From the NCBI GenBank assembly GCA_965602855.1, contig CBFCZV010000012.1, forward strand, positions 1,332 through 65,331: DNA of 64,000 bases, read 5' to 3'. Shown piece after piece: positions 9,680 to 27,933 of this stretch. The DNA comes from an uncultured Gammaproteobacteria bacterium (GTDB taxonomy: Bacteria > Pseudomonadota > Gammaproteobacteria > SZUA-229). A model generated the notes under the pieces. That model was not told the origin of the DNA. It worked only from the letters and a program-made list of their open reading frames with translations, and searched no databases. The position numbers and the translations under genes were made by a program. Every line of letters begins with the position of its first letter. Position 1 is the first letter of the stretch.

Positions 9680-9855
9680 TCAAAACCATTCCATTATTTA
9701 GTTTAGCGACTATTACTGGGTATTCCCCAACGCTCCCAGACGAAGACCAGCAACGATAAATTGTGAAATATTTTAAAATGTCGAATTGACATGAATCAAG
9801 ACTGAGTCTAGTTCAACCAAATAAACTCCAAATACAAAATAAAGAGGATTATGTG

Positions 9856-9987
9856 ATGGAAGTATTTGGTGATTTATTCAATGATTTGACGGGCTGGTTA
9901 ACCATAGGAATACTAATCTTTATGATTGGCATGATGGCCTTTCTGACTAATATGATTATTAAAAAATCCAGGGGTGATGGAAGCTAA
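9856..9987 (+). CDS. possible 43-aa small hydrophobic membrane protein
   Basis: ATG preceded by AAAGAGGA with 7-nt spacing. Encodes MEVFGDLFNDLTGWLTIGILIFMIGMMAFLTNMIIKKSRGDGS. Too short for the supplied ORF track. No homology assessed. Confidence 0.3.
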   Translation: MEVFGDLFNDLTGWLTIGILIFMIGMMAFLTNMIIKKSRGDGS

Positions 9988-10027
9988 TACATCAATGTTT
10001 TAAAGCCCCCCCAATCAGTTATAGGTC

Positions 10028-10080
10028 GGGAACCCTTTCCCGACGTTTCAGATCTTGTCGGCATGGGGATGCCGACCTAC
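10028..10080. terminator. pair of perfect 8-bp-stem hairpins (REP-like / bidirectional terminator candidates) between the small ORF and pfaE
   Basis: GTCGGGAA-ccct-TTCCCGAC and GTCGGCAT-gggg-ATGCCGAC are two related GTCGG...CCGAC palindromes 20 bp apart. A further AT-rich perfect inverted repeat ATAAAAAGG-tgt-CCTTTTTAT at about 10180-10200 lies immediately 3' of the pfaE stop. Confidence 0.35.
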
Positions 10081-10217
10081 TGGCTAACAAAGCTGTCATT
10101 CTGAGCGTAGCGAAGAATCTTATACAGCTCTTTATGCTATCACTCCTCTACACCAGATCCTTCACTCTGTTCAGGATGACATAAAAAGGTGTCCTTTTTA
10201 TATGGCTCGGTAATATA

Positions 10218-10970
10218 TCAAGTATATTGATAACAACGATAGTCACGAATAGATAACTCTGCCGCCAACGTCGCACGATAATCATCCAATACATCTGGCA
10301 ATTCAATATCAACAAACTCAATCTGCACAGAAGGTTGGTATTTTTTTGAGTGGTGTTCAATTAGTGCAGGCGACTGAGGTGGAACTGTTAAAGTAAAGCC
10401 CGTCGGAGGAAGTGATAATCCACTGCCCAGCACTTTCATGTAGGCCTCTTTACGGGTCCAGAGCTGATAAAACGCTGACTTCTGGTTTTCTTTCGCTAAT
10501 GCAAATAGCGCCTGTTTCTCAGGTTCTGTATAAAATCGCTGACAAATTTCAGCCCATTCTGTTTTTCGATCCATGTATTCAATATCAATACCCAGCTCTG
10601 TGCCTCTGCTGACTGCAAGTAATGTTATATCCTGTGTATGGCTTAGATTGAATTTTATATCCTGCTGATTATCTTCTGCAGCAACGAGTGAGGGCTTGCC
10701 CTTATCACCAGACTGAAACTGGATATGGGCTGGCTCTATGAATAAGTATTTTGCCAGCACTGAACGTTTAAAGCCGTGCGACATGATGAAACGATTTCGA
10801 TGAATATCTAGCTTGAAGCGTTGCGCTCTGGCCTGTTCTTCGGCTGACAAGAGAGTGCTGAAATAACCGAATTTATCCTTAACGGTCTCTGCTTTGCATA
10901 ACCAGATATCGACAACACCCTGCTGCAATTTGAAATCTGGATTTTTATTCCACTGGTGGGCAGTACCCAT
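10218..10970 (-). CDS. pfaE: Sfp-type 4'-phosphopantetheinyl transferase PfaE
   Basis: PPTase motifs LGIDIEY (G-x-D-x-E) and WTRKEAYMKVLG (W-x-x-KEA-x-x-K). 250 aa. Directly downstream of pfaD in the same operon. Confidence 0.85.
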   Translation of the reverse strand: MGTAHQWNKNPDFKLQQGVVDIWLCKAETVKDKFGYFSTLLSAEEQARAQRFKLDIHRNRFIMSHGFKRSVLAKYLFIEPAHIQFQSGDKGKPSLVAAEDNQQDIKFNLSHTQDITLLAVSRGTELGIDIEYMDRKTEWAEICQRFYTEPEKQALFALAKENQKSAFYQLWTRKEAYMKVLGSGLSLPPTGFTLTVPPQSPALIEHHSKKYQPSVQIEFVDIELPDVLDDYRATLAAELSIRDYRCYQYT

Positions 10971-10971
10971 T

Positions 10972-12498
10972 TTATCTCGGCGCTGTTGGGATATACCGCT
11001 GGTATTTTGCCGGTAGATACAAGCCCTGACTTTTTAATACCTGAATTCGATGCTGATAGGCTGCGCCATACATCAACTGTTCGGCAACATCGACTACTTT
11101 ACGATTTTGGTAATCATTCAAATAAGTTGAAGCCACCCAGTCATTAAAGGCACCCATCGCAGGGCCGCTCCATATTTGGTAGTCAAATTCACGGCCTTTT
11201 ACACCGGCGTTTGACCAGCGCGATGAAAGCCCCAGATACCAACGAAAAACTAATGCCATTTGTTTCTTTGGATTATCTTTTGCTTTTTCAATAATGGATG
11301 GATCGCGTTTCTGGAAAAATTCTACGGTCTGCTGCCAGATAGTATCAACACTATTTTGCAAAATCTGCTTCTCTACTTTTTCCAGCTCAGTAGGTGGAAT
11401 TTCAGAGAGGCTATTATAAGTTGAGTACAACTCATATAATTTCTGCGCACGCATCGGAAACAGTGTGCCCTTTTTCAGTACCTGTAGTTTAATGCCGCGT
11501 TCAAACATGTCGGATGCCGGTGCCATCACCACATCAGCCATGCCTGCTTCTGCTAATAATTTACGAGTATGCTCTGACGCGCCCGCCTCCACGCAGCTCT
11601 GGTTAACCGAACCGGTAACGACATAAGCCGCACCCATGATATAACAGGCCAGTGCGGCATCGGGTGTACCGACACCACCACCCGCTCCCACTCTAATTTC
11701 AACAGGATAATTATTCTGCTGCTGAATTTCATCCCGCAATGCAATCACCGACGGCAATAAAGATATCAAAGGACGATTATCGGTATGTCCACCTGAATCG
11801 GCCTCGACAGTAATATCATCGGCCATGGGTACTCGCAGCGCCAGTTGCGCCTGCTGTTCGCTGAGCAAACCATCAGCGACTAATTTGTTGAGCACATTTT
11901 CTGGCGCAGGCTGCATAAACACAGTCGCCACTTCTCGTCTGGAAACTTTGGCGATAATTTTATTATTGATCTGGATGTTGCCCTGTGAATCCTGTTGCAA
12001 ACCCTTGGCACGATAATAAACCAGCGAAGGTGTCAGATTAAAAAAGGCCGCAGCCTCTATCACATTGACACCGTACTTCAGGTATAAATCGATGGTGCCC
12101 TGCTCAATCGCAGGTTCGGATGGGTTATGGATAAAATTGAAAACATAAGGCCCATTGGGTAGCGCCTGCTGAATATTTTTAATCGCCAGTTCAACGCGGT
12201 TAAGGTCGAGACCACCAGCGCCAAAAGAAGCCAGGATGTTCTGTTTTCCCAGCGCAATAACCATCTCTTCCGAGGAAATACCATTGGCCATGGCACCAGT
12301 CATATAAGCGTACTTCACGCCATAAAATGCCTTAAACGCGGGATCACCCAACTGCTCTGCCTGCATCGGTGGAACAAAGGCGCTAATTTTTGCGACATCT
12401 TCACAACCTTCATTATTGATAACGAGCTGATCGTTATCCTGAATAACGTAACACGGTTTATCTAATTGCTGTAAAGACTCCAGACCCTGAATCGACAT
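10972..12498 (-). CDS. pfaD: PfaD-family trans-enoyl reductase (FMN-dependent, 2-nitropropane-dioxygenase-like) of PUFA synthase
   Basis: 508 aa. TIM-barrel NPD-like core with the glycine-rich stretch VGAGGGVGTPDAALA. Position immediately after pfaC is as in known pfa clusters. Confidence 0.88.
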   Translation of the reverse strand: MSIQGLESLQQLDKPCYVIQDNDQLVINNEGCEDVAKISAFVPPMQAEQLGDPAFKAFYGVKYAYMTGAMANGISSEEMVIALGKQNILASFGAGGLDLNRVELAIKNIQQALPNGPYVFNFIHNPSEPAIEQGTIDLYLKYGVNVIEAAAFFNLTPSLVYYRAKGLQQDSQGNIQINNKIIAKVSRREVATVFMQPAPENVLNKLVADGLLSEQQAQLALRVPMADDITVEADSGGHTDNRPLISLLPSVIALRDEIQQQNNYPVEIRVGAGGGVGTPDAALACYIMGAAYVVTGSVNQSCVEAGASEHTRKLLAEAGMADVVMAPASDMFERGIKLQVLKKGTLFPMRAQKLYELYSTYNSLSEIPPTELEKVEKQILQNSVDTIWQQTVEFFQKRDPSIIEKAKDNPKKQMALVFRWYLGLSSRWSNAGVKGREFDYQIWSGPAMGAFNDWVASTYLNDYQNRKVVDVAEQLMYGAAYQHRIQVLKSQGLYLPAKYQRYIPTAPR

Positions 12499-15400
12499 TT
12501 ATTCGGCCTCCTTAATACTCAGGCCAATATTTTCTACGGAGTAAATTCGCAGGCCATCTTTCCACAAGTTTCCATCGACAAGAATATCAATGCGACCGAC
12601 ATTATTTCTAATCTCTTTAACATGAACCTCAAGTGTCATCACTTTATTATCAGGAATAATCTGTCCTCGATAACACCAGCTGGCTTCATCTTCTACCGGA
12701 CCAAAGCGTGGGTTTTTAAAATCTTTACCCAGGTTCTGTTGCAGCGCAAAAACCTGTATCGATTGAATCATCGCCTCGACTCCCAATGAACCCGGCATCA
12801 CCGGATCCAGATAGAAGTGACAGGGATAGAACCAGTCAGTGGCATCGATCACATTCATGGAGTGGACATAACCCTTGCCATATTTGCCACCATCAGCAAC
12901 CACGATAGATTCATCGATAAAGTCCAGCATACCACCGGCCAGGTGGTAATAAGGTTTATCCTGTTTCGCCGCGTACAGATCCTGTCTGACCTGTTCAGAG
13001 TGAAGATCAAGCTTGATTAATCTATCATCAGAAATCGCTTCTTCTTTATACCAGGGCAGTAATTTTTTACCCTTATCCATACCCACCTGATTAGACAGCG
13101 AATCGGCGGTAAAGAAACCGAATACCGCATCACCCTCGTAGAAAGTTTCACCATCGCAAATTAATTCAAAGGTGAACTTTTGAATAATATTGTTCATCAC
13201 CGCGGAGGTAGAATACATGGTCGATTTATTGACGATGGTCTTGCCACGAAGATCAACTTCTTTTATTAATCGTCCGGTTCCATCCAGATTACGGAAATAA
13301 AGATTTGAATCTGGATAGAGCAAGGTGCTGCCAATATGCGAAGTCAAAAACCCATTCGGCTGTAACGCAATCTCCATTAACATCGAGTAAGGCGTAAACG
13401 AGGGGTAAGAATTCTCAGTACAGAACCAGACGTCTTCGGCAACATCATATTCGGCGGTACAGCCGGTGGTGTTATCAAAATCATGACGTTCACCCTCCAC
13501 GCTCATCACCCGATCCATTAACTGTAAATAACCATTGGGGGTACGTGGTGGTCGTCTGGCAGGATCACCGGCTTTCGCTGGCGGCTGTTTATAAATAGCG
13601 AACTCAGGACCAAAACAGGCTTCGATATCACCCGTGGCAAAGTGCACTATCTGCTCTTCGGTAAATAGCGGTGCTTTTTTGCTGCTTGGCACAACTGCCA
13701 GTGCTGGTGGTGTTGATTGCACTGGTGCTGGAGCTGGCTGCTGATTAATATCTGCCGCGCCACCTTTTAGCAACAGTTTTTCTGCGGCACTCTTTTCAGA
13801 TAGTTCAAGACAAACATTTCTAAAGTCGACCACCACTTTTCCATCTAGCAAAATATCGACGTTACCTTTGGCATAAGGTTTTGGACTCAGACCGATTTCG
13901 GTCACTTCCAGTCGGTAGGTCATCAATCGATCTTTGGGTAGAGCCTGACCCCGGCATCGAATAGGCTGGGGTATGTTCTGTATCGTCTGGAAGCGCGCAT
14001 CTTCTGTTTTGGTGTGCAGGCCTAAATAGAGCATGAAAAATTGCAGTAACTGAACACAACCTTCAGACATCAAGGAACCAGCCAGCACAGGATCATCGCG
14101 GAAGTGACTGGTAAAGTACCACTCATCCGGCAACAGGTCTTTTTCAGCTTCGATAAATCCAAGACCCCACAGGCCACCAGCAGGATCAACCGAAGTGATA
14201 CGATCCAGCATCAGAATTTTTTCTAATGGGAAATGCAAAGAAGGATTTTTGCCCATTTTGTCGTAAGCCGGATTGGCATAACAGGCGGCTAAATCACCCG
14301 TGGTCAACGAATGCATATCATTCTTATCAAAAGATGTTTTGCTGCATTGCAACAAAGGAGTAAACGATGACTTTGTCACGCGTCCCCGCTCAGCAGTTTC
14401 CTCATTGGTGCGAATAACACCCTTGCCAACGGCGAGCTCCTCTTCCGAGAAGAAACCGGCACAACCCTCATCCATTTTCAGGATCATTTTATCGCCGATA
14501 AAACACTCGTAAGAGAAAAAGAACAGCAGGTTATTTTTATGCTGGGCGAAAGAGTTGATGGAAATTTCATAACGCAGCGTCTGACCTTCTTTGGGCTGGT
14601 CATCCAGGAAGGTCAAAGTGCAATCGAGCAAACGGTACAGATATTTGCCTTTGTTATTAAAATCGATACCCATGTAGCTGATCAACAACAAATCACATTG
14701 ACCCGATTCGATACAGATACAGGTGGGGATCTGACCATCGGTTGAATACCAGGCATTGTGCGGAATATCATATTCCGTGGTCATTTTAGAAGGTTTAAAC
14801 TCACCACGTTCACCCTGCATTTCAGTAACACGCGTCACCAGCAAATAAGGATCCATCGGTAACATTACCCGTTTAGGATAACTATCGATGATGTCATATT
14901 CAGAGCCAAACACCTTGCCAATTTTTCCATAGGCAAATTCGCGTAAATCTTCTTCGCTGAAAATTATTTTCTCAGGCGTGCTGTATTCAGACGGGAACAA
15001 TTGTTTTGTCGCGACATTCTCATTAGAAGCAGTTGCTGCCGGTGTAAGCGAAGCCGTCTGAGTTGTACGTACTATATTTCCTGAACCCGGCGAGTGGATA
15101 CTATCAATAATCGATGCCGTTAAAGCCTGCAAGCCCTGATGGCGTGAAGCCATAAATCCTGCGTGCATTTTGCTGATGTTAATATTGTGCTGTAACATTT
15201 TTTGCAGCATTTCACTTTGATAAGTAGTTGAACCTCCGGTGACATAACCGGGCGTACCATTGGCAACTATTTTTCTCTCTGACATGTTTTGTCTCTGTTT
15301 ATCTATGCTTGCTGAATGCAGTTTATTTTCAACTGGCTCAGGATTTGTTTTAGTTACCACCGCTGGCTTGGCTGGAGGCATTTTAACTACTTCTGCTTTT

Positions 15401-18400
15401 TTAATTACCGGAGCCACTGGCTGTACTTTTTCAGGCAAAAATCTTGTCCTGTTTTGCTCAGCAAGAATGACTTCTGAAAATGGCTGCTTACCTAATACAA
15501 CCGGTTTGACCAAACTTGGCTTTTTGCTTTGCGCTTCATTCACAGCAGGATAAAGTTTATCCAGATCCATGGCTACGCCATGACAGGTCAGTTTGGCGGC
15601 CAAACGCAGTAAGGAGGTATAGTCATCCACACCCTTGCGATTAATGTTCACCGCAAGATGCTGTTTGCCTTTCAGGCTTTCACCAATCCATTTTGTACAG
15701 CTGCCCTGAGGCCCCAGTTCAATAAAGATGCGCGCACCATCGTCATACACCTTATTAACCAGCTTTGGAAAATCGACCATGTGCGTATAGAAAGTCGCGA
15801 TATTGTGACCAATAACATCATCTTTGATTTCAGTTTTCTGGTAGTCGGCCGCGGTATAAAAATCAACACCTTCAATTTGGGTGGTTGGCATGGTGTGCAA
15901 TTCTTTAAGCGCATCAAACTCTGCTTTCACCAGTTCATTGTGAACAACATCTTTAATCGGAACAGGGAACAATTTCCATTTTAATTTTTTGACAACACGT
16001 CGACAGGCTTCATCATCACCAGCGATAACAATTTCATTGGGTGCGTTAATAATGATGAGGAACACCCTGTCCTCTTCAGCAATTATTGGCTCTGCTTTTT
16101 CTGGCGAGGTTCGCAAAGTATAAGTGCCCCAGATGGGCTTATCACCCTCTTTAGCCGGCGGCAGATTCCAGGCCTGCCTGACCACATCCATCTCACCGAC
16201 CAGGCGATTATGGAAGGTAGCGGTTGAGTGCAGAGTCTCACTCATGTAGTCGGTATTACCCCAGGCACCCGATGAGAACAGCATGGATAACTCGCCCATA
16301 CTGTGACCAAAAGCAGCACCAGGCTTAACGCCCAATAAATCCTGAATCACCTTGGTGTAGACAACAGAAGTCATAATGCCAGACTCAAACATGGCAATAG
16401 CATCTTCACCCATGACTTCCTCTAATTGTTTAAGCGCCTTTTTATCAGCTGCTGAAACAGTTTCAGGATAGACATAATGAGTGCGCATCATGGTTTTTAA
16501 ATTGGAGCTGGCGTTTGCAACCAGTTCTATGGTCTCGGGGAACATATGAAATATGTCCCTGGCCATACCAATATAAGAATTAAAACCACCAGGATAAACG
16601 AAAGCGATCTTGCCTTTTTCAGCCTGTGGTGTCGGTGTGAAGTAACTGCCTAACGGCGTTGACCACTCCTGTGCATTTTCCATGGCTACGGGCAGGCCTT
16701 TTTGAGCTGCAAGAATTTCACGCTGCAATTCTTCAGATGAATGCGCCAGTACTGTGATACGAAATTTTGCAGTCGTATTTTTCTTAAACTGCTGGTATTT
16801 ATCCAGCGAAAGTTGTTTTAAAGAAATCGTCTGTGCGGATTCTACTTGCAGTGAATCCAGCTCCTGCAATAACGTTTTTTCTGACTGGGCGCTAAGCGGG
16901 AACATAAAGAAGGACAGATTTTCAAAAAAATCATTCTTCGGTGTTTGAGCCTTATCGGCTTCAGATAAAATCAAATGATAGCAGCTGTCATCCTGACCCA
17001 GACTATTGATCGCCGCATAACGTTTTTTATGATCACTGTTAATCAACCAGGGGCGGGACTGCTCGGGAAAATAAAAATTATTTTCATCCCAGCTGGATAA
17101 ATCTTTTGGTTTATCCCAGCCGGGAATGCCCGGAATAAAACGCTGATGAATGCACAGCGCTGTTTTTACCAGACTGGCAATACCGGAAGCGGCAAAAGTG
17201 TGACCAATATTGGCTTTCACACTTCCTAGTGCACAAGTTTGTTTCTGGTAGGTTTTTTTCAGGGCCACAATTTCGGCATCATCCTGATTCTGGATACCAC
17301 TGCCGTTTAATTCAATATAATCAATCTGATCTTTGTCAACGCCAGCCTGTTGCAGGGCGTCGGCAGATGCCTGTTGTAAACTATCAGCAGAAACATTACG
17401 TTTACCTGCCAGCGCTTCAATCGTCGCGTAAACCCGCTCACTATTTTCCAGCTGATCATTACGCTTTAAAACAACGGCACCAGCACCTTCACCGATGCTC
17501 CAGCCTGTGCTGCCCTGATCAAAACTCAAACCAGCGTCATCATTTGAATCAAGTGGATTGCGCTGATTTTGAAGATAGACGTGTTCAAAACCACCCGCCA
17601 GATCCACCGCACCAACTACCATGGCATCGACTTCACCAGAATCTAAAAATAACTTAGCCACTTCCAGCGCTTTGAATACGGAATTTTCTTCTGAAGAAAT
17701 AGTAAAAGCCGGGCCGGAGAAATCCCACAGGGAACAAATACGACAGGGAATAATATTGCCGATAAAACTGGTGAACTGATTGATCTCAACCGCATTGTGC
17801 AGGCTATCTTTCAGTAGATCGGTGAGCTGTTCCTGCTGCACATCGCTCAATTCAATATTGCTGTTACGCAGGCTCTCCTGCAGTTGCCAGGCAACATCAA
17901 TACGCCCACGGAACTGATGAATCCCCAGGTCCATTTCCATCGCTACAATAACACCAACATTGCCACATTTAGGCAGGGTGGAATCTTGCAGCGCTTCATC
18001 CAGCACTTTCATCATCAGCAACTGTTGCGGTAATAAAGGCGCCTGTTCTTCCGGTGGGATTTTGAAATACAGGTAATCAAAATCAAACTGATCTATGTAG
18101 TTTCCCTGTGGTGCTTTTTCATCAAGACCAAATTTTTTCAATAACGGGCTATCGTTTTCAATACCCTGCCAGCGATCTTTAGGTAAAGATCGTTGCAAAC
18201 GTCTGGAGTTGTAGATGGTCTCTTCCAGTTCAGACAACGATTTACTCTGCCCGAAGTAAGCACTCATACCAACGATAGAAATCGCCTGCTCCGTGATTTC
18301 AGTCGGTTTCTGTTTTGCTATTTTCTCCTGCTGTTTTTTAGTCAACGGAAGATGCTCTTCCATCACCAGATGTGCATTAGTTCCACCAAAACCAAAAGCG

Positions 18401-19719
18401 CTGATAGCGGCGACTTTTTTATTCTTACCAGAACCTTTAGCCTGCGGCCAGGGACTATTTTCAGTTAAAATTTTATCGTCGGCAATCTTGTCACTGTCAC
18501 AACTTAGCGGTTTTTGAACATTAATGGTTGCCGGTAGTAAATCATTTTTCATCGCCAAAATAATTTTTAGCATACCCGCCATGCCAGCCGAAGTCAGCAG
18601 ATGACCAAAGTTAGATTTGGCTGTGCCCATGCTGAAGTGAATATTTTTATCGCCGAAGAAACCCTGCATCGATTGAATTTCAGTTTCATCACCCAGCGGT
18701 GTTCCGGTGGCATGACATTCAACATAGTCGACATCTTCCGGTTTTATTTCAGTATCGTTATAAGCTCGCTCATAACATCTTTCCTGACCGGCCTGATTGG
18801 GGCTTAAAACAAATTTTCCTTTACCGTCATTGGAGAGGCCAATGCCACTGATGACGCCTTGTATAGCATCACCATCACGTACTGCATCTTCATAACGTTT
18901 TAAAACAAACATACCGGCACCCTCGCCGGTATTTAAACCACTGGAATTTTTATCCAGCGGTCGGCTTATCACATTTTCAGGAAAAGCTTTAAAAGTTGAA
19001 AAACCCATGGAGACAAACCAGGGGTCAGCGGCACTAACCGCACCGGCCAGCATCATGTCTGCCTTATGCGACAGCAGATAGGAACAGGCGAGCTTCATAC
19101 TATAGAGCGATGATGCGCAGGCGGCATCCAGCGCCATTGATACCTCACCTAATGCTAGCGCCTGATTGATGGTGCTAGCCGGGTGACCGCCAACGCTACC
19201 ATTAGTTAAATCAGCAGCCGACTCGCCACCCATTTCAAGACTCTGATCATTGAGTAATTTTTTTAGTGGCGTAGCCAGGGCCTGATGATAGAGCGGCAAA
19301 AAAAGCTGGTTCGATTTTTTTGTGGGGAAAGAAAGATTGCCAAGGATTACACCGCAACGTTTCAATTTATCAGACTGATTGCTATAACCTGAATCTTTCA
19401 GCGCCTCGCGACTAACGTGCAAGGCCCACTGGAAAGTATTATCCAGATCATTTAGCTGCTCAGCACCTACTGCATAACCTTCACTATCAAACTGAAAGTT
19501 CTGAATATAACCACCGGTGGTGCAGTAGTATTTATCCTTGATCTCTTTGGCTGGCCCGTCTTTCGCTGGATTAAAATAATCAGCAGGTTCACGCCCCATT
19601 TGTTCTGCATCAGCAGCAACCCGTGAGTCTTTATTAGCAAGCAGATTCTGCCAGTATTCTTCAGGTGTCTCCGCTCCGGGAAACAGGCAGGAGGAACCTA
19701 TAATAGCAATCTTATTCAT
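12499..19719 (-). CDS. pfaC: PfaC-like multidomain subunit of PUFA/secondary-lipid synthase with embedded acyltransferase: KS - CLF - AT - FabA-like DH - FabA-like DH
   Basis: KS active site DAACASSLYSMKLA with HATGT and GHL motifs. A second KS-like chain-length-factor domain follows. AT domain with AFGHSMGELS (encoded about 16284-16313). Two FabA-type dehydratase signatures: YFTSHFRDDPVLAGSL and FYPCHFYLDPVMPGSLGVEA. Length is 2406 aa. Confidence 0.9.
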   Translation of the reverse strand: MNKIAIIGSSCLFPGAETPEEYWQNLLANKDSRVAADAEQMGREPADYFNPAKDGPAKEIKDKYYCTTGGYIQNFQFDSEGYAVGAEQLNDLDNTFQWALHVSREALKDSGYSNQSDKLKRCGVILGNLSFPTKKSNQLFLPLYHQALATPLKKLLNDQSLEMGGESAADLTNGSVGGHPASTINQALALGEVSMALDAACASSLYSMKLACSYLLSHKADMMLAGAVSAADPWFVSMGFSTFKAFPENVISRPLDKNSSGLNTGEGAGMFVLKRYEDAVRDGDAIQGVISGIGLSNDGKGKFVLSPNQAGQERCYERAYNDTEIKPEDVDYVECHATGTPLGDETEIQSMQGFFGDKNIHFSMGTAKSNFGHLLTSAGMAGMLKIILAMKNDLLPATINVQKPLSCDSDKIADDKILTENSPWPQAKGSGKNKKVAAISAFGFGGTNAHLVMEEHLPLTKKQQEKIAKQKPTEITEQAISIVGMSAYFGQSKSLSELEETIYNSRRLQRSLPKDRWQGIENDSPLLKKFGLDEKAPQGNYIDQFDFDYLYFKIPPEEQAPLLPQQLLMMKVLDEALQDSTLPKCGNVGVIVAMEMDLGIHQFRGRIDVAWQLQESLRNSNIELSDVQQEQLTDLLKDSLHNAVEINQFTSFIGNIIPCRICSLWDFSGPAFTISSEENSVFKALEVAKLFLDSGEVDAMVVGAVDLAGGFEHVYLQNQRNPLDSNDDAGLSFDQGSTGWSIGEGAGAVVLKRNDQLENSERVYATIEALAGKRNVSADSLQQASADALQQAGVDKDQIDYIELNGSGIQNQDDAEIVALKKTYQKQTCALGSVKANIGHTFAASGIASLVKTALCIHQRFIPGIPGWDKPKDLSSWDENNFYFPEQSRPWLINSDHKKRYAAINSLGQDDSCYHLILSEADKAQTPKNDFFENLSFFMFPLSAQSEKTLLQELDSLQVESAQTISLKQLSLDKYQQFKKNTTAKFRITVLAHSSEELQREILAAQKGLPVAMENAQEWSTPLGSYFTPTPQAEKGKIAFVYPGGFNSYIGMARDIFHMFPETIELVANASSNLKTMMRTHYVYPETVSAADKKALKQLEEVMGEDAIAMFESGIMTSVVYTKVIQDLLGVKPGAAFGHSMGELSMLFSSGAWGNTDYMSETLHSTATFHNRLVGEMDVVRQAWNLPPAKEGDKPIWGTYTLRTSPEKAEPIIAEEDRVFLIIINAPNEIVIAGDDEACRRVVKKLKWKLFPVPIKDVVHNELVKAEFDALKELHTMPTTQIEGVDFYTAADYQKTEIKDDVIGHNIATFYTHMVDFPKLVNKVYDDGARIFIELGPQGSCTKWIGESLKGKQHLAVNINRKGVDDYTSLLRLAAKLTCHGVAMDLDKLYPAVNEAQSKKPSLVKPVVLGKQPFSEVILAEQNRTRFLPEKVQPVAPVIKKAEVVKMPPAKPAVVTKTNPEPVENKLHSASIDKQRQNMSERKIVANGTPGYVTGGSTTYQSEMLQKMLQHNINISKMHAGFMASRHQGLQALTASIIDSIHSPGSGNIVRTTQTASLTPAATASNENVATKQLFPSEYSTPEKIIFSEEDLREFAYGKIGKVFGSEYDIIDSYPKRVMLPMDPYLLVTRVTEMQGERGEFKPSKMTTEYDIPHNAWYSTDGQIPTCICIESGQCDLLLISYMGIDFNNKGKYLYRLLDCTLTFLDDQPKEGQTLRYEISINSFAQHKNNLLFFFSYECFIGDKMILKMDEGCAGFFSEEELAVGKGVIRTNEETAERGRVTKSSFTPLLQCSKTSFDKNDMHSLTTGDLAACYANPAYDKMGKNPSLHFPLEKILMLDRITSVDPAGGLWGLGFIEAEKDLLPDEWYFTSHFRDDPVLAGSLMSEGCVQLLQFFMLYLGLHTKTEDARFQTIQNIPQPIRCRGQALPKDRLMTYRLEVTEIGLSPKPYAKGNVDILLDGKVVVDFRNVCLELSEKSAAEKLLLKGGAADINQQPAPAPVQSTPPALAVVPSSKKAPLFTEEQIVHFATGDIEACFGPEFAIYKQPPAKAGDPARRPPRTPNGYLQLMDRVMSVEGERHDFDNTTGCTAEYDVAEDVWFCTENSYPSFTPYSMLMEIALQPNGFLTSHIGSTLLYPDSNLYFRNLDGTGRLIKEVDLRGKTIVNKSTMYSTSAVMNNIIQKFTFELICDGETFYEGDAVFGFFTADSLSNQVGMDKGKKLLPWYKEEAISDDRLIKLDLHSEQVRQDLYAAKQDKPYYHLAGGMLDFIDESIVVADGGKYGKGYVHSMNVIDATDWFYPCHFYLDPVMPGSLGVEAMIQSIQVFALQQNLGKDFKNPRFGPVEDEASWCYRGQIIPDNKVMTLEVHVKEIRNNVGRIDILVDGNLWKDGLRIYSVENIGLSIKEAE

Positions 19720-19745
19720 ACGAAAAATCTCAAATACTTCTGACC

Positions 19746-22700
19746 TTATTTCTTTTTAAACATAGAGTTCAAACTTGGGCTCACGGTAACTTCTGCACCA
19801 AAGGCTCTTGAGTAAATATTTCCGCTTTGATCATGAATTACGACATCAGCTGTCATATTGGTCTCAGAGGTTGAATCCACATCCAGTGATATATAGAAGT
19901 CTTTATGATCCGGTATCAATTTATAGTTAACTACCTTGAGGAACTTCAGCGGCAGACTGCCCAGATGACGGTGCTCTCTCACCCAGACCAGCATTGCCTG
20001 GAACATCAGGTCAGTGGCAAACGGGTTAAGCGAACTAATTGGGAACTGGCCCTGTTCACGATCTTTAATTTTATCCAGGTTACAAAGCAGGGTTAATTTC
20101 TTCATCGAAGTGTTGACCACTTTCTCGATTCCCTGAAATAGTGATCCATGGAACAGTGTGCCATTTTTGTACAAGGTCTCCCCTGTCGTGGTTTCTGTTT
20201 CATTCAAATCAGATTGTGTATACATAGGGACTTCAGGGATTTCTTTCACAATCAGTATGTTGGCCTTGTAATGCCAAACCTGTTTACCCTTGCTATTTTT
20301 TGATGAAATGGTTACCTGAGAACAACTAATGTTTTCATCATTAGAAATGCCTTTGACATCAACCTGATACGAATCGGCCTGACTCTCATCAAACACGATG
20401 CCCTTGAGCACCTGAAACTCATCGCATTCAAAGAAACTATAAGAAGGATTCAGTCGCTCACAAATATTAGACATCCACGAAAGCGCGGTGGCCGATGGCA
20501 ACACTGGGCTTTCACCAATGACATGATCATTTAAAAATGGATTGTCCTGCAACAACAACTTGGTATTGATCTGGAAGGTACGCAACGGTGTGTTGGTGTT
20601 ATCGACATCCGAGCGCATTGAACTACCGACCAATAACTGAATGGTCTCACCTCTATCCTGATGCAATTCATTGCTAAAGATTTCTACACCTTCCTGCATG
20701 GGAATAATTTCAACATTCCTTTCCTTAAAGTAACGTTTCAATTCAGGCGTTACCATACCGCCATCCCAGGGTCCCCAGTTGAAGGAAACTACATGACAAT
20801 CTGGATAGTAATGTTTAAATTGATAAGCTGTTTTGTTGAGAATTTCATTGGCAACAGAATAATCAGACTGACCATTGTTACCGTAAAAACCCGCCGCCGA
20901 AGAGAACAGCGCCAAATATTTCAGATCTTCCTTTTTGACCAGCGACAACATCGCTTCCAGGCCATCTATTTTAGTATTTAATACCGCATTAAAATCAGCT
21001 TCAGTTTTCTTCTGAATTGGTTTATCGGCCAGCACGCCCGCGCCATGAATCAGGCCGGTAATTTTTCCAAGTTTGGCAACCGCAGGTGCTGATTTTTCTT
21101 TTAAGGCTGCACTATCGGTGACATCTGCACTGATATATTCAGCCTTACCACCCAGCGCCGCAATTTGATTTAAAGTTTCACTAATCTCACGATCAGATTT
21201 AATTGCGCGTAAACGTTTGTTGACGATAACAGGTGTTGGTTTTTCACCTTCATCCTGTAATACCTGCATAATTTTACGTTTCAGCTCAGCCTCATCTTCA
21301 CAGCCTTTTGCCCATTCAGGTTCAATCCCGTTATAAGGCGCACGACCTGCCAGTACAAAACCACAGTTATATTGCTTGGCCAATGGCATAAGGCAGGCAG
21401 CGGTAACACCCTTGGCACCACCACTAACTAAAAATACCGAGTTTTCGTTGATATTGTCATGCGCTGATGCAACTGGCTCGTGCGCTCTCACTTCACCAGA
21501 TAAAGTCATACGACCTTTTGCAGAGTTGCCCACCTCAACAATAGAAAGATCAGGATCAAATAACTCATCCATCAATATTTGAGCACCCTGTTTATCTTTT
21601 GTATCTGGACTCAGGTCAATGGCACGGCAGAAAATCTCATCCCATTCAAGATTTAACGTTTTCACCAAACCATTCAAACCGCCCTGACTTAATTCAAAAC
21701 GATTGTGACCCGCAGTACCAATCTCGCCATCCATATAAGATGCAGTGACAAAGAAATTACGTCCGTGCAGCGGTTTAGTCGTTAATGCATTTTGCAAATA
21801 TTTAGCAGTAAAGAAAACCATTTTCAGCATGCTTTGTTCGCGCTTGCTAAATTTGATCTTGCTGCCCTTATCCGCAGGCTTGGCACTGAGATGAATAAAT
21901 CCATTCAGCGGCTGAGCGGCGGTAACAGTACTCAATGTTTTTTCCAGCTCGGCATCTGTCGCCTTTGCCAGCTTAACGGTTTGAGTTCCTTTGGGTAGTG
22001 AACTCGGTTTGGCTATCAGCGATGTCGGGAACTGCATCACCGTCACATTCCAGCCCAAATCCTGCAATGCTTTTGCAGTGTTGTAAGTGAGCTTGTCACC
22101 ATTATCGGTGATTAAACAATTGCGCCCCGTAACGCTGATTTCTGATTCCAGTACATCAGGACGGGGAAGATACTTTTTTACAACGACACTTTCGGTAGTC
22201 GAAAAAGAACCATCATTAACGGTGCTAGCGGCCTCTTCTGCTGGCTCTGATAAAGCCCTGCTGATACTGCTATCCTGTGGCACCAGACTTTTAACGTACT
22301 CCACAATTTCAGCCAGTGTTCCCATTTCGGAAAGTGCATTCTGATCCATTTCAGGTAGTTCAGGGAACTTGCTAGTCATCGCGCCAAGAATCTCAACTCG
22401 CTTAATCGAATCGATACCCAGATCCGCTTCAAGATTCATAGTCAAGTCGAGCATTTCTACAGGGTAACCGGTTTTTTCATTTACGATTTCCAGCATGCTC
22501 TGCTGAATAGCGGCTTCATCTAACACCGATGACGCTGAAATGATTTCAACTTCTGTAGTTGTAGTCACTTCACCTGCACCTGACTGAGTTTCTACGTATT
22601 CAACAATTTCTTTTAACGTCTGCATTTCTGCCAGTGCATTTTGATCCAGCTCGGGCAGTTCAGGGAACTTGCTGGTCATGGCACCGAGAATTTCAACGCG

Positions 22701-25700
22701 TTTAATCGAGTCGATACCAAGATCAGCTTCCATGTTCATATTGAGATCAAGCATCTCAACCGGGTAACCGGTTTTCTCGTGAACGATTTCCAACATGCCT
22801 TTTTGGATGCTGGCAGAATCCAGTCCTGAATTAACCGCAACTGGCGCAGCTACCGATGCACTAGCACCGGATTGCTGTTCAACGTATTCAACAATTTCCA
22901 ATAGCGTTTGCATTTCTGCCAGTGCGTTTTGATCCAACTCTGGCAGCTCAGGGAATTTACTGGTCATAGCACCGAGAATTTCAACGCGTTTAATTGAATC
23001 AATACCGAGGTCAGCTTCCATATTCATATTTAAATCGAGCATCTCAACCGGATAACCGGTTTTCTCGTGAACGATTTCTAACATGCCTTTTTGAATGCTG
23101 GCTGAATCAAGTCCTGAATTAACCGCAACTGGCGCAGCCGCTGATGAACTCGCACCGGATTGTTGTTCAACATATTCAACAATTTCTAATAGCGTCTGCA
23201 TTTCCGCCAGTGCATTTTGATCCAGCTCTGGCAGTTCAGGGAATTTACTGGTCATAGCACCGAGAATCTCAACGCGCTTAATTGAGTCGATACCTAAGTC
23301 AGCTTCCATGTTCATATTGAGATCAAGCATCTCAACCGGATAACCGGTTTTCTCGTGAACAATTTCTAACATGCCTTTTTGAATTGCCGCTGAATCGAGA
23401 CCCGATGAGGCTGGCGCTGAAACTGCGGCAACCGGTGCTGCAGCAGCTGCAGCGATAACAGGCGCTACTGCACCTGCCTGCTCTTCTACGTACTCAACAA
23501 TTTCTTTAAGCGTCTGCATTTCTGCCAGTGCATTTTGATCCAGCTCGGGCAGTTCAGGGAACTTGCTGGTCATGGCACCCAAAATTTCAACGCGTTTGAT
23601 CGAGTCAATACCGAGATCGGCTTCCATGTTCATATTGAGATCAAGCATCTCAACCGGGTAACCGGTTTTATCCTGAACAATTTCCAGCATGCCATCCTGA
23701 ATTTGTTTTGTATCCAGAGCCGAAGTCTGCACAGGTGCCTGGACTGGTGCAGCAGCAATTGGAGCAGCAGCAATCGGCGCTGGCGCAGGTGCCGCTACTG
23801 GTTCAGCAACGGCTTGCTGGACCGGCGCAGCAGTTTTAACCACTGGTGAAGGCGCGGCTACAGCTGGCTGATAATTAGCAACAGCTTCTCCACCCATCAT
23901 TTGATGAGTAGATTTGTTGAATTCTATTTGACCCTGCAAATAACTTTGATGAACCTTGAGCGTATCCTGCTGGTACTGATGCAAATCAGAAATACTCTGG
24001 CTGATATTATCTGGAACAGCTTGGTTCTTTGCACCAAATTCATCCACTAAATGGTGCATCATGTTAAAGAAACCCTGTGAATAATCCTGCTGATTTTGCA
24101 GATAGGTTTCATGGGCACTCATGGTGGCAGACTGAGCCTGCAACCATTCTGACTGATTAACGCCCTGAGCTACCGTACTTACCTGAGCAACCTCAGTAGC
24201 CTGCGTTGTACTAGCTGTCGACTGAGCTATTTCCTGAGCAACTGCTGGACTGGCCTGCACCGGAGCTGACTCGCTTTGTGGTGCGCCCAGTTTTTGAGGC
24301 AATGTCAGCTGATAATCATCATTTAGCGTATCTTCAAACGCCTGCTTAGTCGCATCACTGACATAGTTAGCACCATTGAGCTTGATGTTCATGCCCGCTT
24401 TTTTGATGACGGGTTGTTCAACATCACGCTGGTAAATATCTTTTAGATTAAGCTCAACGCCGGCCACTTTCAGCTGAACCATAGCATCACGATAGAGCGC
24501 ATCACTATTGCCTTTAGGTGAACTATTCATGGCAATGGCAACATGAGGTCGATCGGCCAGAATAGTATTAACCAGACGGCTCAGTACATTCTTGGGGCCA
24601 AACTCAACAAAGATAGTGCCACCCTGATCAGCCATGGCATTGATCTGCTGAGTAAAGTGCACAGAATTAAGCATATTTGACTTAAAGCTCTGTTTAATTT
24701 CTTTCGCGGTTTTTGGATACGGCTTCGCAGTCACATTAGAGAAAATACTGGTATGTGGTTTTTTGAACGTCTGTTTTTCAATCGCATCGGAGAAAGGCTT
24801 ATCTGCGTAACCTACCAACGGTGAGTGGAAAGCGGCCGAAACCGGCAAGGCAACAACTGAGAAACCATCACTTTTCAGAGACGTAGCGGCATCTGCGATA
24901 GCCTGGCTTGGCCCGGCAACCACCACCTGTTTGGGTGAGTTGTAATTGGCGATAGAAACCTGATCCAGTTGATTAATTTTCTGCTCAATTTCTGTGGCAT
25001 CACCCATAACTGCCAGCATGGAACCTGCGTCATAACCTTCTTCGGGGGATGTGCCCATAGCGATACAACGAGAACGTGACAGACTGTAGAAGCCATCATC
25101 ATCGATCACACCCGCTGCCCACAATGCGGTTAATTCACCATAGCTGTGACCAGCAACCATATCGGCCTTAAAGCCACTCTGCTGCATCATTTTAAATAGA
25201 CCAACACTGACAGAACCAATCGCTGGCTGAATGTACTGCGTCAGTTTTAATTTCTCTTCCTGGGCTTTTTTGCCGGCTGCATCAAAGGCGCGTTCCGGGA
25301 AGACTGCACTCGAAAGTTCAGTGTCATTATCATCCAGTAAAAGCTGACCCATTTTGGCAAAACTTTCACGCATCGGTGGGAAGTTGAGGGTCAGATCCTT
25401 ACACATGTTGAGATACTGAGAACCCTGACCGGAGAACAGTGCGACCACTTTTGAACCGCTAGGTAATGCCTGAGCACGGTAGTGAACACCACCCGGATGT
25501 TCCCAGACTTCTTCACCCTGCGTTTTTTTCAATTGATCCTGAGCGGTTATTAAAAGCTCAATCACCGTGGCCTGATCCTCGGCGACAAAACCCAGGCGTG
25601 CATCGCTTGAAGGAACCGTGGCATTTTCTGCTTCGACGACAAAATTATAATATTCCTGCCCGCTATCATCGTTTTGCAGTGCTGCCAACCAGAACTGGCA

Positions 25701-27236
25701 CTTGCTGGCCAATGCCTCTGGATTGCCCGCATGTAATACAAAAGCGCGTGACATACCATGTTCGCGGTATCCCTTTGCGGAAATTTGATCCGCATCAGAC
25801 TGATATTCTTCCAGCACAAAATGGTAGTTACTGCCACCGAAACCAAAAGAGCTGACACCGGCACGACGTGGCGTTAGCGCATTATTGATCCAGGGACGAG
25901 TATCGGTATTCAGGTAAAAAGATGAATCTTCAATATTTAATTTAGGATTAGGGTTATCGACATTAATCGTTGGTGGCAATACCTTATGGTACAGAGCCAT
26001 CGCCGCCTTGATCAGTCCGGCAGAACCTGCGGCGGTTTTGGTGTGACCAATCTGAGACTTCACACTACCCAAAGCAATATGCTGCTTTTCATGATCTTCG
26101 CTATCAAAAGCCAGTTTTAGTCCATCAAACTCAGCGGCATCACCAGCCTTGGTGCCAGTACCATGTGCTTCAACTAATTTAACAGTGCTCTTATCAAAAC
26201 CGGCATCCTCGTAGGCGCGATTAATAGCCACACTCTGACCAGCCGCACGCGGTGCGTAAATACTCTTGAAACGACCATCGCTGGAAGTACCAACACCTTT
26301 AATGACCGCATAAATTCGGTCATTGTCCCGCTCCGCATCTTCCAGACGTTTGAGCATAACCATGCCAACACCTTCACCAATGACGATACCGTGCGAGGCT
26401 TCATCAAATGGCTTGGGCACTTCATCCGTAGTGAAAGCGGGAGTTTTACTAAAATTGAGGTACATGAAGGGTGAGTTATCGGTATCGACACCACCGGTGA
26501 TCATGGTATTGGCCTTGAATTCCAGCAGATCACTGATCGCCATCTTCATCGCGGCCAGTGAGCCAGCACAGGCAGCATCAACCACACAGTTAGTGCCACC
26601 CAGATCAAAACGATTTGCAACTCGGCCGGCGATCACATTACCCAGCATGCCCGGAAATGAGTTCTCAACCCAGGGAATGTAGGCCTTTTTCATTTTTTCA
26701 ATCAGGATCTGGATATCGTCTTCAGCAACACCACTGCTTCTGAGTACTTTTTCCCAGACCGGCCCCTGCAGGCGCGAAACCAGTGGGCTGATCAGTTTCT
26801 GACCACCACCAACGCCGAGAATGACCCCGGTATTTTCTCGATCAAATTCACCATCGGCATAACCACAATCTTTGATCAAATCACGGGCAACGACCAGAGA
26901 CAACAATTGTGATGAATCGGTGACTTCAAGAATATTGGGCGGCAGACCAAATTCCATGGGGTCAAAATCAATATCGGGTATGAAACCACCGCGCTTGCTA
27001 TAACTCTTATCGGGAGTGGCAGGATCGGCATCGTACAGGTCATTAATCTCCCAGCGATCCGATGGCACGTCGATGACGCAGTCCACCTTGCCCATAATAT
27101 TTCCCCAAAACTCGTGCAGATCCTTTGATTCTGGAAACAGAGATGCCATGCCAATAATAGCAATGGGAGTCTCCTGTAATCGAGAAGTGAGTTTTTTGTC
27201 GAGCGCTTTTGTATCTGCCATCATTAAACCTGTCAT
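19746..27236 (-). CDS. pfaA: PfaA subunit of PUFA/secondary-lipid synthase: KS - MAT - 5x tandem ACP - KR - PKS-type DH
   Basis: KS with DAACAGSLAAMKMA, EAHGTGT and GHTKTAAG. Malonyl-CoA:ACP transacylase GHSYGELTAL. Five ACP domains, each with LGIDSIKRVEILG (phosphopantetheine Ser), separated by Ala/Pro-rich linkers. KR Rossmann motif VSGGAKGVTAAC. C-terminal DH with DHVIGESPVLP (HxxxGxxxxP). Length is 2496 aa. Confidence 0.92.
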   Translation of the reverse strand: MTGLMMADTKALDKKLTSRLQETPIAIIGMASLFPESKDLHEFWGNIMGKVDCVIDVPSDRWEINDLYDADPATPDKSYSKRGGFIPDIDFDPMEFGLPPNILEVTDSSQLLSLVVARDLIKDCGYADGEFDRENTGVILGVGGGQKLISPLVSRLQGPVWEKVLRSSGVAEDDIQILIEKMKKAYIPWVENSFPGMLGNVIAGRVANRFDLGGTNCVVDAACAGSLAAMKMAISDLLEFKANTMITGGVDTDNSPFMYLNFSKTPAFTTDEVPKPFDEASHGIVIGEGVGMVMLKRLEDAERDNDRIYAVIKGVGTSSDGRFKSIYAPRAAGQSVAINRAYEDAGFDKSTVKLVEAHGTGTKAGDAAEFDGLKLAFDSEDHEKQHIALGSVKSQIGHTKTAAGSAGLIKAAMALYHKVLPPTINVDNPNPKLNIEDSSFYLNTDTRPWINNALTPRRAGVSSFGFGGSNYHFVLEEYQSDADQISAKGYREHGMSRAFVLHAGNPEALASKCQFWLAALQNDDSGQEYYNFVVEAENATVPSSDARLGFVAEDQATVIELLITAQDQLKKTQGEEVWEHPGGVHYRAQALPSGSKVVALFSGQGSQYLNMCKDLTLNFPPMRESFAKMGQLLLDDNDTELSSAVFPERAFDAAGKKAQEEKLKLTQYIQPAIGSVSVGLFKMMQQSGFKADMVAGHSYGELTALWAAGVIDDDGFYSLSRSRCIAMGTSPEEGYDAGSMLAVMGDATEIEQKINQLDQVSIANYNSPKQVVVAGPSQAIADAATSLKSDGFSVVALPVSAAFHSPLVGYADKPFSDAIEKQTFKKPHTSIFSNVTAKPYPKTAKEIKQSFKSNMLNSVHFTQQINAMADQGGTIFVEFGPKNVLSRLVNTILADRPHVAIAMNSSPKGNSDALYRDAMVQLKVAGVELNLKDIYQRDVEQPVIKKAGMNIKLNGANYVSDATKQAFEDTLNDDYQLTLPQKLGAPQSESAPVQASPAVAQEIAQSTASTTQATEVAQVSTVAQGVNQSEWLQAQSATMSAHETYLQNQQDYSQGFFNMMHHLVDEFGAKNQAVPDNISQSISDLHQYQQDTLKVHQSYLQGQIEFNKSTHQMMGGEAVANYQPAVAAPSPVVKTAAPVQQAVAEPVAAPAPAPIAAAPIAAAPVQAPVQTSALDTKQIQDGMLEIVQDKTGYPVEMLDLNMNMEADLGIDSIKRVEILGAMTSKFPELPELDQNALAEMQTLKEIVEYVEEQAGAVAPVIAAAAAAPVAAVSAPASSGLDSAAIQKGMLEIVHEKTGYPVEMLDLNMNMEADLGIDSIKRVEILGAMTSKFPELPELDQNALAEMQTLLEIVEYVEQQSGASSSAAAPVAVNSGLDSASIQKGMLEIVHEKTGYPVEMLDLNMNMEADLGIDSIKRVEILGAMTSKFPELPELDQNALAEMQTLLEIVEYVEQQSGASASVAAPVAVNSGLDSASIQKGMLEIVHEKTGYPVEMLDLNMNMEADLGIDSIKRVEILGAMTSKFPELPELDQNALAEMQTLKEIVEYVETQSGAGEVTTTTEVEIISASSVLDEAAIQQSMLEIVNEKTGYPVEMLDLTMNLEADLGIDSIKRVEILGAMTSKFPELPEMDQNALSEMGTLAEIVEYVKSLVPQDSSISRALSEPAEEAASTVNDGSFSTTESVVVKKYLPRPDVLESEISVTGRNCLITDNGDKLTYNTAKALQDLGWNVTVMQFPTSLIAKPSSLPKGTQTVKLAKATDAELEKTLSTVTAAQPLNGFIHLSAKPADKGSKIKFSKREQSMLKMVFFTAKYLQNALTTKPLHGRNFFVTASYMDGEIGTAGHNRFELSQGGLNGLVKTLNLEWDEIFCRAIDLSPDTKDKQGAQILMDELFDPDLSIVEVGNSAKGRMTLSGEVRAHEPVASAHDNINENSVFLVSGGAKGVTAACLMPLAKQYNCGFVLAGRAPYNGIEPEWAKGCEDEAELKRKIMQVLQDEGEKPTPVIVNKRLRAIKSDREISETLNQIAALGGKAEYISADVTDSAALKEKSAPAVAKLGKITGLIHGAGVLADKPIQKKTEADFNAVLNTKIDGLEAMLSLVKKEDLKYLALFSSAAGFYGNNGQSDYSVANEILNKTAYQFKHYYPDCHVVSFNWGPWDGGMVTPELKRYFKERNVEIIPMQEGVEIFSNELHQDRGETIQLLVGSSMRSDVDNTNTPLRTFQINTKLLLQDNPFLNDHVIGESPVLPSATALSWMSNICERLNPSYSFFECDEFQVLKGIVFDESQADSYQVDVKGISNDENISCSQVTISSKNSKGKQVWHYKANILIVKEIPEVPMYTQSDLNETETTTGETLYKNGTLFHGSLFQGIEKVVNTSMKKLTLLCNLDKIKDREQGQFPISSLNPFATDLMFQAMLVWVREHRHLGSLPLKFLKVVNYKLIPDHKDFYISLDVDSTSETNMTADVVIHDQSGNIYSRAFGAEVTVSPSLNSMFKKK
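22290..23710. repeat. five tandem near-identical ~288-318 bp DNA repeats encoding the PfaA ACP domains
   Basis: The 47-nt core gcaccgagaatttcaacgcgtttaatcgagtcgataccaagatcagc recurs at 22381, 22681, 22969, 23257 and 23575 with only a few substitutions. The supplied antisense ORFs 22641..22829 and 23535..23849 have almost identical translations because of this repeat. Confidence 0.9.
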
Positions 27237-27876: not shown

Positions 27877-27893
27877 TATTACTAAAGCACAAA
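27877..27893 (-). promoter_or_regulatory. candidate sigma-54 (-24/-12) promoter reading toward the 68-aa ORF (and possibly pfaA)
   Basis: The minus strand reads TGGCATGGTTTGTGCTT. GG and GC are spaced exactly as in the TGGCAC-N5-TTGC consensus, with a mismatch each in the -24 and -12 hexamers. An AT-rich putative bending region and bEBP boxes lie 40-90 bp upstream on the norR side. Confidence 0.4.
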
Positions 27894-27933
27894 CCATGCC
27901 AATTTATAAGGCGCTGTTTTTATTCATAATTAA

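Follow-up and report, generated by a model that had tools for sequence, protein, structure and literature searches.

A pfaBC-fusion cassette with a PfaB-like acyltransferase forms, by its sequence, a separate lineage in uncultured sulfur-oxidising Gammaproteobacteria

The 64,000-nucleotide stretch of contig CBFCZV010000012.1 analysed here (the window) comes from an uncultured gammaproteobacterium and carries a cassette of four genes, pfaA, pfaBC, pfaD and pfaE, of the type that encodes polyunsaturated fatty acid (PUFA) synthases. Our analysis suggests that the cassette very probably encodes a self-contained iterative type I fatty acid/polyketide synthase (FAS/PKS) of the Pfa type, which belongs to the pfaBC-fusion class, would release its chain through an acyltransferase (AT) embedded in PfaBC, and would represent a separate lineage. 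The four open reading frames (ORFs) are co-directional (Table 1), add up to 5,660 uninterrupted codons and are separated, from 5' to 3', by 26, 0 and 1 bp; in all this the ORF calls agree exactly with the initial annotation of the stretch. Scans with Pfam and NCBIfam models gave the order pfaA (ketosynthase (KS), malonyl-CoA:acyl carrier protein transacylase (MAT), five acyl carrier proteins (ACPs), ketoreductase (KR) and dehydratase (DH)), pfaBC (KS, chain-length factor (CLF), AT and two DH domains), pfaD (enoyl reductase, ER) and pfaE (phosphopantetheinyl transferase, PPTase), with bit scores and E-values far beyond chance. The first protein has the KS-MAT-tandem ACPs-KR(-DH) organization of PfaA homologues, although a metagenome gene caller places its start 5 codons later (2491 aa). 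The second joins a KS-CLF pair to two FabA-like dehydratase/isomerases, the CLF being without the catalytic Cys, as expected for a CLF, and both DHs carrying the His. A PfaD-type ER (TIGR02814) and a dedicated PPTase (ACPS and AASDHPPT_N domains) complete the set, and every catalytic signature examined was intact across the cassette. In addition, copies of pfaBC that were 100% identical were found on two metagenome contigs.

Architecture and lineage of the cassette

The initial annotation had presented the cluster as a variant architecture, but this layout had already been described. The pfaBC fusion, with KS-CLF-AT-DH2 encoded by a single gene as in the window, was reported in 2011 for Types C, D, H and I (Shulse and Allen, PMC3098273), and the Type C cluster of Desulfatibacillum alkenivorans, which has pfaD at its 3' end (PMC3098273), is identical in gene order. 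Hence, the fused layout is not new, and the cassette is a new member of the pfaBC-fusion class. The Type D cluster of Aureispira marina, in which the AT is fused to pfaC, directs the synthesis of arachidonic acid (ARA) in E. coli (PMC4882568), and the AT-like domain embedded in the thraustochytrid synthase was found by experiment to be a releasing thioesterase (PMC8003026). Our search returned 6,547 PfaBC homologues at E <= 1e-10, and among the top 120 almost all had 2,250-2,550 aa, many of them being named 'PfaB family protein'. The PUFA-making myxobacterial synthase likewise has an embedded AT, in Pfa3, which ends in an acylglycerol-phosphate acyltransferase (AGPAT) domain, and its ER comes first. 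By Pfam scan, PfaBC has no AGPAT match, since the protein ends after the second DH, and no fused ER. It had also been stated that pfaE usually lies elsewhere; a pfaE homologue was found to adjoin pfaA, however, directly upstream and on the opposite strand, in 20 or more of the loci sampled from Vibrio, Photobacterium, Shewanella or Parashewanella. The distinction of pfaE in the window is its position, as the last and translationally coupled gene of the operon, 1 bp after pfaD, which is where it had been annotated.

The closest architectural match is the Type C cluster of D. alkenivorans, in which pfaA (3015-9989), pfaBC (9989-17002), pfaD (17024-18637) and the PPTase gene (18668-19432, all in the coordinates of that locus) have the same order and orientation, with an unsplit pfaA followed by pfaBC and a 3' pfaD, and whose product is also uncharacterised. 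Its host is a deltaproteobacterial sulfate reducer whereas that of the window is a gammaproteobacterium, its AT reads GYSMG where that of the window reads GHSMG, and the identities between the two systems are 50% (KS), 45% (CLF), 43% (AT), 50% (DH), 60% (ER) and 67% (PfaA-KS). The ketosynthases do not group with Type C: with the PfaA-KS at 67% identity no specific pair appeared in the trees, and Shulse and Allen had drawn their types at a KS identity of roughly 74% or more. The canonical Type A/B clusters (Shewanella, Photobacterium, Vibrio and Moritella) share the catalytic domain inventory and the host class, Gammaproteobacteria, but their PfaB is a protein of its own, with a KS'-AT layout, and its gene precedes pfaC (a 697-aa ORF in locus L062), whereas no stand-alone pfaB lies between the genes of the window and the AT is found inside PfaBC; pfaE, where seen in Type A/B, is upstream on the opposite strand. 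Identities to Type A are 46-52% (KS), 36-41% (CLF), 25-29% (AT), 45-47% (DH), 61-65% (ER) and 62-66% (PfaA-KS). Compared by description, Type D (A. marina and Psychroflexus torquis; Bacteroidota; ARA or eicosapentaenoic acid (EPA)) has the AT fused as KS-CLF-AT-DH2, like the window, but its pfaA is split, and the KR is encoded by a gene of its own. The AT also comes after KS-CLF within a single polypeptide in myxobacterial Pfa1-3 and in thraustochytrid subunit B; the thraustochytrid subunit has an ER in place of the second DH, and its motif II is GLSLG instead of GHSMG.

When homologues of PfaBC were compared, a tight group of 32 clusters with 61-100% identity was found, after which identity dropped sharply to 48% or less. 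The members of this clade include Sedimenticola sp. and Ca. Polarisedimenticolaceae metagenome-assembled genomes (MAGs; 80-81%), 'uncultured Thiotrichaceae' MAGs (79-84% over partial matches and, for one full-length sequence, 66%), Thiohalomonas (71%), and Gammaproteobacteria that live in symbiosis with lucinid clams (Taylorina, Bathyaustriella and Lucinoma; 72-74%). A further member (P0017) stems from a vent 'sulfur-oxidizing endosymbiont' (GCA_016097415.1, a 4.2-Mb contig), the host of which is, from the taxonomy list and the accession, most likely Gigantopelta aegis. Among species-representative genomes the closest PfaBC proteins, from Sedimenticola sp., Ca. Polarisedimenticolaceae and 'Thiotrichaceae' MAGs, had 80-85% identity. 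The order of the four genes was kept in at least 12 related loci, the flanks of which were all unrelated, and pfaE was not downstream in a few more distant members (L005, L020 and L029). Fragments of pfaA and pfaBC that are 85-88% identical to the window were also seen on a 3.6-kb contig binned as 'Desulfobia sp.' (L031, JAUWDC010000236.1); no deltaproteobacterial homologue comes near this identity, and a binning error in that MAG is therefore the probable explanation.

Neighbour-joining trees with 200 bootstraps were built for KS-CLF-DH2 (1,397 columns), the AT, the ER and the PfaA-KS. In all four the sulfur-oxidiser clade and Type A were each monophyletic in 200/200 bootstraps, and the two were sisters in at most 4/200; grouping with the canonical clusters, represented by Type A sequences, was not seen in the KS phylogeny. 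The comparison with the Shulse-Allen types that the initial annotation had proposed thus yielded a clade of its own, for a reference set without Types B, D and I and myxobacteria. The topology suggests a separate lineage that attaches among fused forms of deltaproteobacteria, SAR324, Chloroflexi and cyanobacteria. As judged from these sequences, the cassette is a separate lineage in uncultured sulfur-oxidising Gammaproteobacteria, and not a rearranged cluster of the Shewanella/Vibrio/Photobacterium type. What is new is the clade in uncultured sulfur oxidisers and symbionts, its separate position in the trees, and a GHSMG motif throughout the clade. Furthermore, the comparison of pfaA, pfaBC and pfaD with relatives of 72-86% identity gave nonsynonymous divergences (dN) of 0.09-0.18 and, with synonymous divergence (dS) saturated, dN/dS ratios of ~0.03-0.08 that are rough upper-range estimates. 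These low ratios point to strong constraint by purifying selection and argue that the genes are not relics.

The embedded acyltransferase and its motif II

The domain scans confirmed that PfaBC contains a second AT, which follows the CLF and precedes the FabA-like dehydratases, and the reported absence of a stand-alone pfaB from the cluster also held, the only sequences of AT fold in the window being the MAT of PfaA and the embedded AT. As observed with Shewanella PfaB as a query against the 64 kb, the embedded AT was matched at an E-value of 2e-42 and the PfaA MAT at 1e-5; nothing else, and hence no second pfaB, was found there. The embedded AT and Shewanella PfaB were reciprocal best matches. 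The structure of S. baltica PfaB (9ry8) was matched by sequence at 7e-36, and it was also the top fold match of the AlphaFold model of the embedded AT (predicted local distance difference test (pLDDT) 87.9, predicted template modelling score (pTM) 0.88), with an E-value of 4.5e-36, a template modelling (TM) score of 0.81 and a root mean square deviation of 2.3 A, which is ~13 orders of magnitude better than the match to PKS acyltransferases. When the domain was aligned with E. coli FabD as the anchor, the catalytic dyad of Ser1140 and His1260 was kept, with Asn1225 as the partner, and the positions of FabD Q11, Q63 and R117, which bind the malonyl carboxylate, were occupied by Gly, Ala and Ser, respectively. 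The MAT of PfaA has an Arg at the R117 position. PfaB has been reported to act as a long-chain terminal acyltransferase with a Ser-His dyad and without the malonyl-binding Arg and Gln (PMC12895367). The evidence from sequence and modelling thus indicates that the embedded AT is the equivalent of the stand-alone PfaB, and the agreement of its site pattern with that reported for PfaB, together with the sequence and fold matches, makes its putative role in the release of the chain well founded.

S. baltica PfaB (9ry8) and Moritella marina PfaB share with the window AT the Ser-His dyad and the lack of the malonyl-binding Arg and Gln, and their identity to it is 23-29%; the partner residue is Gln in EPA-type PfaB and Asn in the window AT, and upstream of the AT, PfaB has a degenerate KS' domain whereas PfaBC has a genuine CLF. 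The KS-CLF part of PfaBC matches the KS-CLF structure of Moritella PfaC (PDB 6riw) at an E-value of 4e-244. Among the hits of the HMMER search described below we also observed many proteins of ~780-960 aa (e.g., P0253, P0257 and P0259) that start with Met and look full-length. They carry GYSxG and are collinear, with 30-39% identity, with the CLF-plus-AT part of the fusion (aa ~470-1390). From this collinearity the stand-alone 'KS-prime-AT' PfaB would seem to be a homologue of the CLF-AT portion of the fused protein, which bears on the relation between the split and the fused forms.

The motif GHSMGELS (residues 1138-1145 of PfaBC) is present as annotated, but its reading as a generic AT signature misses that its His is unusual for a PfaB-type AT. 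GHSMG was found in the window and in 53/53 clade sequences (a count that includes some protein and locus duplicates), whereas the Tyr of the bacterial PfaB motif (GYSxG), which the embedded AT lacks, was present in all 41 stand-alone PfaB proteins and in 88 of the 96 other fused ATs that were aligned. When 1.84 billion representative proteins were searched exhaustively with the AT domain (HMMER), the best 150 matches comprised 147 with Tyr, one with Phe and two with His, both of the latter being members of the clade. This Tyr is reported to be conserved in bacterial PfaB and to be critical, in that Moritella PfaB loses activity in vitro when it is replaced by His (Y607H) or Leu (Y607L; PMC12895367). 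In addition, Asn1225 occupies the position of the His-Asn pair of a MAT, and the same Asn is shared by the fused ATs that carry the Tyr. We speculate that His1139 might tip the enzyme towards either transfer or hydrolysis, or lead to a different acceptor.

Proposed activity, product and alternative explanations

In the mechanism that we infer, PfaE would phosphopantetheinylate the five ACPs of PfaA, the PfaA MAT would load malonyl units, and the PfaA KS together with the KS-CLF pair of PfaBC would elongate the chain. The pattern of cis double bonds would be set jointly by the reductases (the KR and the enoyl reductase PfaD) and the dehydratases (the DH of PKS type and both FabA-like dehydratase/isomerases), and the embedded AT, acting as a non-malonyl long-chain terminal acyltransferase/hydrolase, would off-load the finished chain from the ACP. 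The completeness of the PUFA-type domain set speaks for a product that is long-chain and polyunsaturated; such an acyl chain is our best guess, most probably one of C20-C22 destined for membrane lipids. The earlier caution that the product cannot be read from the domain order was upheld, and a call between EPA, docosahexaenoic acid (DHA) and ARA from the sequence was rejected, as no validated determinant fits such a divergent AT.

Several observations weigh against this reading. The product is a prediction from sequence for every member of the clade. Sulfur-oxidising chemosynthetic bacteria have been reported to make mainly 16:1 and 18:1 fatty acids and not commonly PUFA (PMC13299295), and several pfaBC-fusion types (C, H, I and K) have uncharacterised products (PMC3098273). 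The embedded AT just missed the cutoff of the PfaB model TIGR02816 (139.7 bits against 144.3, with residues 894-1388 aligned to model positions 6-530 of 534), and it carries His at the very position where the change from Tyr to His cost Moritella PfaB its activity in vitro (PMC12895367). Finally, the trees are neighbour-joining trees only, with Types B, D and I and the myxobacterial references left out. The literature that we searched contained no relevant report of PUFA or pfa genes for Sedimenticola, Thiodiazotropha, Gigantopelta, or lucinid or chemosynthetic symbionts.

An alternative of appreciable though clearly lesser probability is that the synthase is functional and its product is not a classical membrane EPA, DHA or ARA but a different secondary lipid, for example a polyene precursor for Ole-type hydrocarbons, a very-long-chain or less unsaturated chain, or a lipid for tailoring enzymes encoded elsewhere. 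The uncharacterised products of most pfaBC-fusion types and the fact that sulfur oxidisers are not known PUFA producers fit such a product, as do the reuse of Pfa-like machinery for specialised lipids (PMC13291983) and the clade-specific His in the releasing AT, which could alter what is released or its destination. Set against this are the complete and intact PUFA-type domain set, with its two FabA-like DH/isomerases, and the surroundings of the cassette: no ole, non-ribosomal peptide synthetase (NRPS)/PKS, type III PKS, glycosyltransferase, AGPAT or thioesterase genes, and no tailoring or partner genes of these kinds, were found beside it in the window, and the flanks differ in every relative, so that no tailoring partner is conserved in cis. 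That the GHSMG domain has instead reverted to a MAT-like or starter-loading function, with release left to another enzyme, such as a thioesterase or a separate PfaB encoded at another locus, seems improbable. The His beside the catalytic Ser and the Asn partner are indeed as in malonyl transferases, and the Y-to-H mutant of Moritella PfaB is reduced in long-chain transfer; but the equivalents of Arg117, Gln11 and Gln63 for the malonyl carboxylate are replaced by S, G and A, PfaA already has a complete MAT, PfaB and not a MAT is the top match both by sequence and by fold, the 64 kb hold no further AT, and the Asn partner is shared with Tyr-bearing fused ATs.

We consider it least probable of all, to the point of being hardly credible, that the cluster is a relic, decaying or silent, without current function. 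The lack of a convincing sigma-70 promoter directly upstream of pfaA would be in keeping with a relic, but four long uninterrupted ORFs with every catalytic motif intact, the dN/dS values given above, and the retention of the cassette in at least 30 lineages would not. A functional Pfa synthase whose embedded AT releases a long-chain polyunsaturated chain is the reading that we prefer.

Cassette features, flanking genes and significance

The features of the cassette and of the rest of the window are collected in Table 1. The GC content of the cluster (0.43-0.47) equals that of its surroundings, so that composition is uninformative on horizontal transfer. The start of pfaA lies 390 bp past a small ORF for a predicted membrane protein of 68 aa, and the interval showed no sigma-70-like site. 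This small ORF is preceded by a -24/-12-like element and is divergent from a gene for a NorR-like sigma-54 activator. Regulation of the pfa genes by this activator was considered and rejected: -24/-12-like motifs of the same stringency were no more frequent than by chance (45 found and 43.6 expected), and the regulator stands beside pfa in no sufficiently flanked relative.

Table 1. Coordinates of the cassette, its domains and other features of the window
Feature	Coordinates	Strand	Evidence or remarks
pfaA, 2496 aa, KS-MAT-5xACP-KR-DH	19746..27236	-	TIGR02813 (omega_3_PfaA), 2700 bits (cutoff 1010); Pfam domains
PfaA ketosynthase	25803..27170	-	Cys in DAACAG (aa 220-225), HGTGT (358-362), QIGH (395-398)
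PfaA malonyl-CoA:ACP transacylase	24510..25451	-	Acyl_transf_1; GHSYG (696-700), AAFH (801-804), GQGSQ
PfaA five tandem ACPs	22197..23717	-	PP-binding; LGIDSI x5, Ser at aa 1212, 1318, 1414, 1510, 1610
PfaA ketoreductase	20763..21428	-	GGAKGVTAA, YSVAN
PfaA C-terminal PKS-type dehydratase	19776..20570	-	HVIGESPVLP
pfaBC fusion, 2406 aa, KS-CLF-AT-DH-DH	12499..19719	-	ORF call; Pfam and NCBIfam
PfaBC ketosynthase (aa 2-455)	18355..19716	-	DAACAS, HATGT, NFGH
PfaBC chain-length factor (aa ~476-890)	17050..18294	-	SSEENS at the Cys position, NGSGI for HGTGT, NIGH kept
PfaBC linker and PfaB-like acyltransferase (aa 894-1395)	15535..17040	-	TIGR02816, PDB 9ry8, AlphaFold model
Motif II GHSMG (aa 1138-1142)	16294..16308	-	His1139 in place of the Tyr of other PfaB-type ATs
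FabA-like dehydratase/isomerase 1	13810..14310	-	HFRDDPVLAG; Glu at FabA D84 position
FabA-like dehydratase/isomerase 2	12520..12942	-	HFYLDPVMPG; Glu at FabA D84 position
pfaD, enoyl reductase, 508 aa	10972..12498	-	TIGR02814 (pfaD_fam), 670 bits; start abuts pfaBC stop
pfaE, Sfp/HetI-type phosphopantetheinyl transferase, 250 aa	10218..10970	-	GIDIE, WTRKEA; 1 bp after pfaD
ABC-3C defence-like module, three genes	2005-5727	-	Within low-GC stretch 1-6000
68-aa predicted membrane ORF	27627-27833	-	Preceded by -24/-12-like element
-24/-12-like element TGGCATGGTTTGTGCT	27886-27901	-	Upstream of 68-aa ORF
NorR-like sigma-54 activator	27995-29551	+	NF003451, 736 bits
ATP-grasp L-amino-acid-ligase-like gene	41712-42950		
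Radical SAM gene	44013-45068		
PreP-like M16 peptidase	45074-48037		
TPMT-family methyltransferase	48062-48811		
map and rpsB-to-lpxA block	49421-62982		map, dxr, rseP, bamA, skp, lpxD, lpxA identified by scan
t44 RNA	61966-62058	-	RF00127, 80.5 bits; between map and probable rpsB ORF

In the defence-like ABC-3C (ABC-three-component) module at the beginning of the window, an SMC/ABC-like ATPase of 662 aa is accompanied by a middle component of the MC4 family (PF20290) and by an effector that combines a lipase-like N-terminus (PGAP1/DUF676) with a CTD8 domain (PF20284); the GC content of 0.33-0.38 in positions 1-6000, against 0.41-0.49 elsewhere, suggests an island. The ATP-grasp, radical SAM, peptidase and methyltransferase genes within 41712-48811 are near one another and may represent a small peptide-modification neighbourhood. 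Within the rpsB-to-lpxA block, rpsB is a probable ORF, and the genes between it and dxr were assumed from the usual gene order. Relatives of BamA were from MAGs of Gammaproteobacteria or Thiotrichales. The t44 RNA and the conserved block down to dxr-rseP-bamA-skp-lpxD-lpxA indicate that the window is chromosomal gammaproteobacterial DNA.

The finding is real and largely explained already; the architecture itself is close to textbook knowledge, and its importance is modest. It places a complete and strongly conserved PUFA-type synthase in sulfur-oxidising Gammaproteobacteria that include animal symbionts, and the clade can serve as a natural experiment on the active site of PfaB, in which a His and a MAT-like Asn partner occur without the malonyl-binding residues. 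We put forward, as a tentative and rather doubtful proposal, that the sulfur-oxidiser clade, including the lucinid and vent symbionts, makes long-chain PUFA de novo with this cassette, and that the change from Tyr to His may alter the manner of release or the acceptor of the chain. The origin of PUFA in vent and seep animals has been posed as a question (PMC13299295). If the proposal were true, it would counter the usual view of chemosynthetic bacteria as suppliers of only 16:1 and 18:1 fatty acids, and the symbionts could provide hosts that live in PUFA-poor vents and seeps with essential fatty acids from within.

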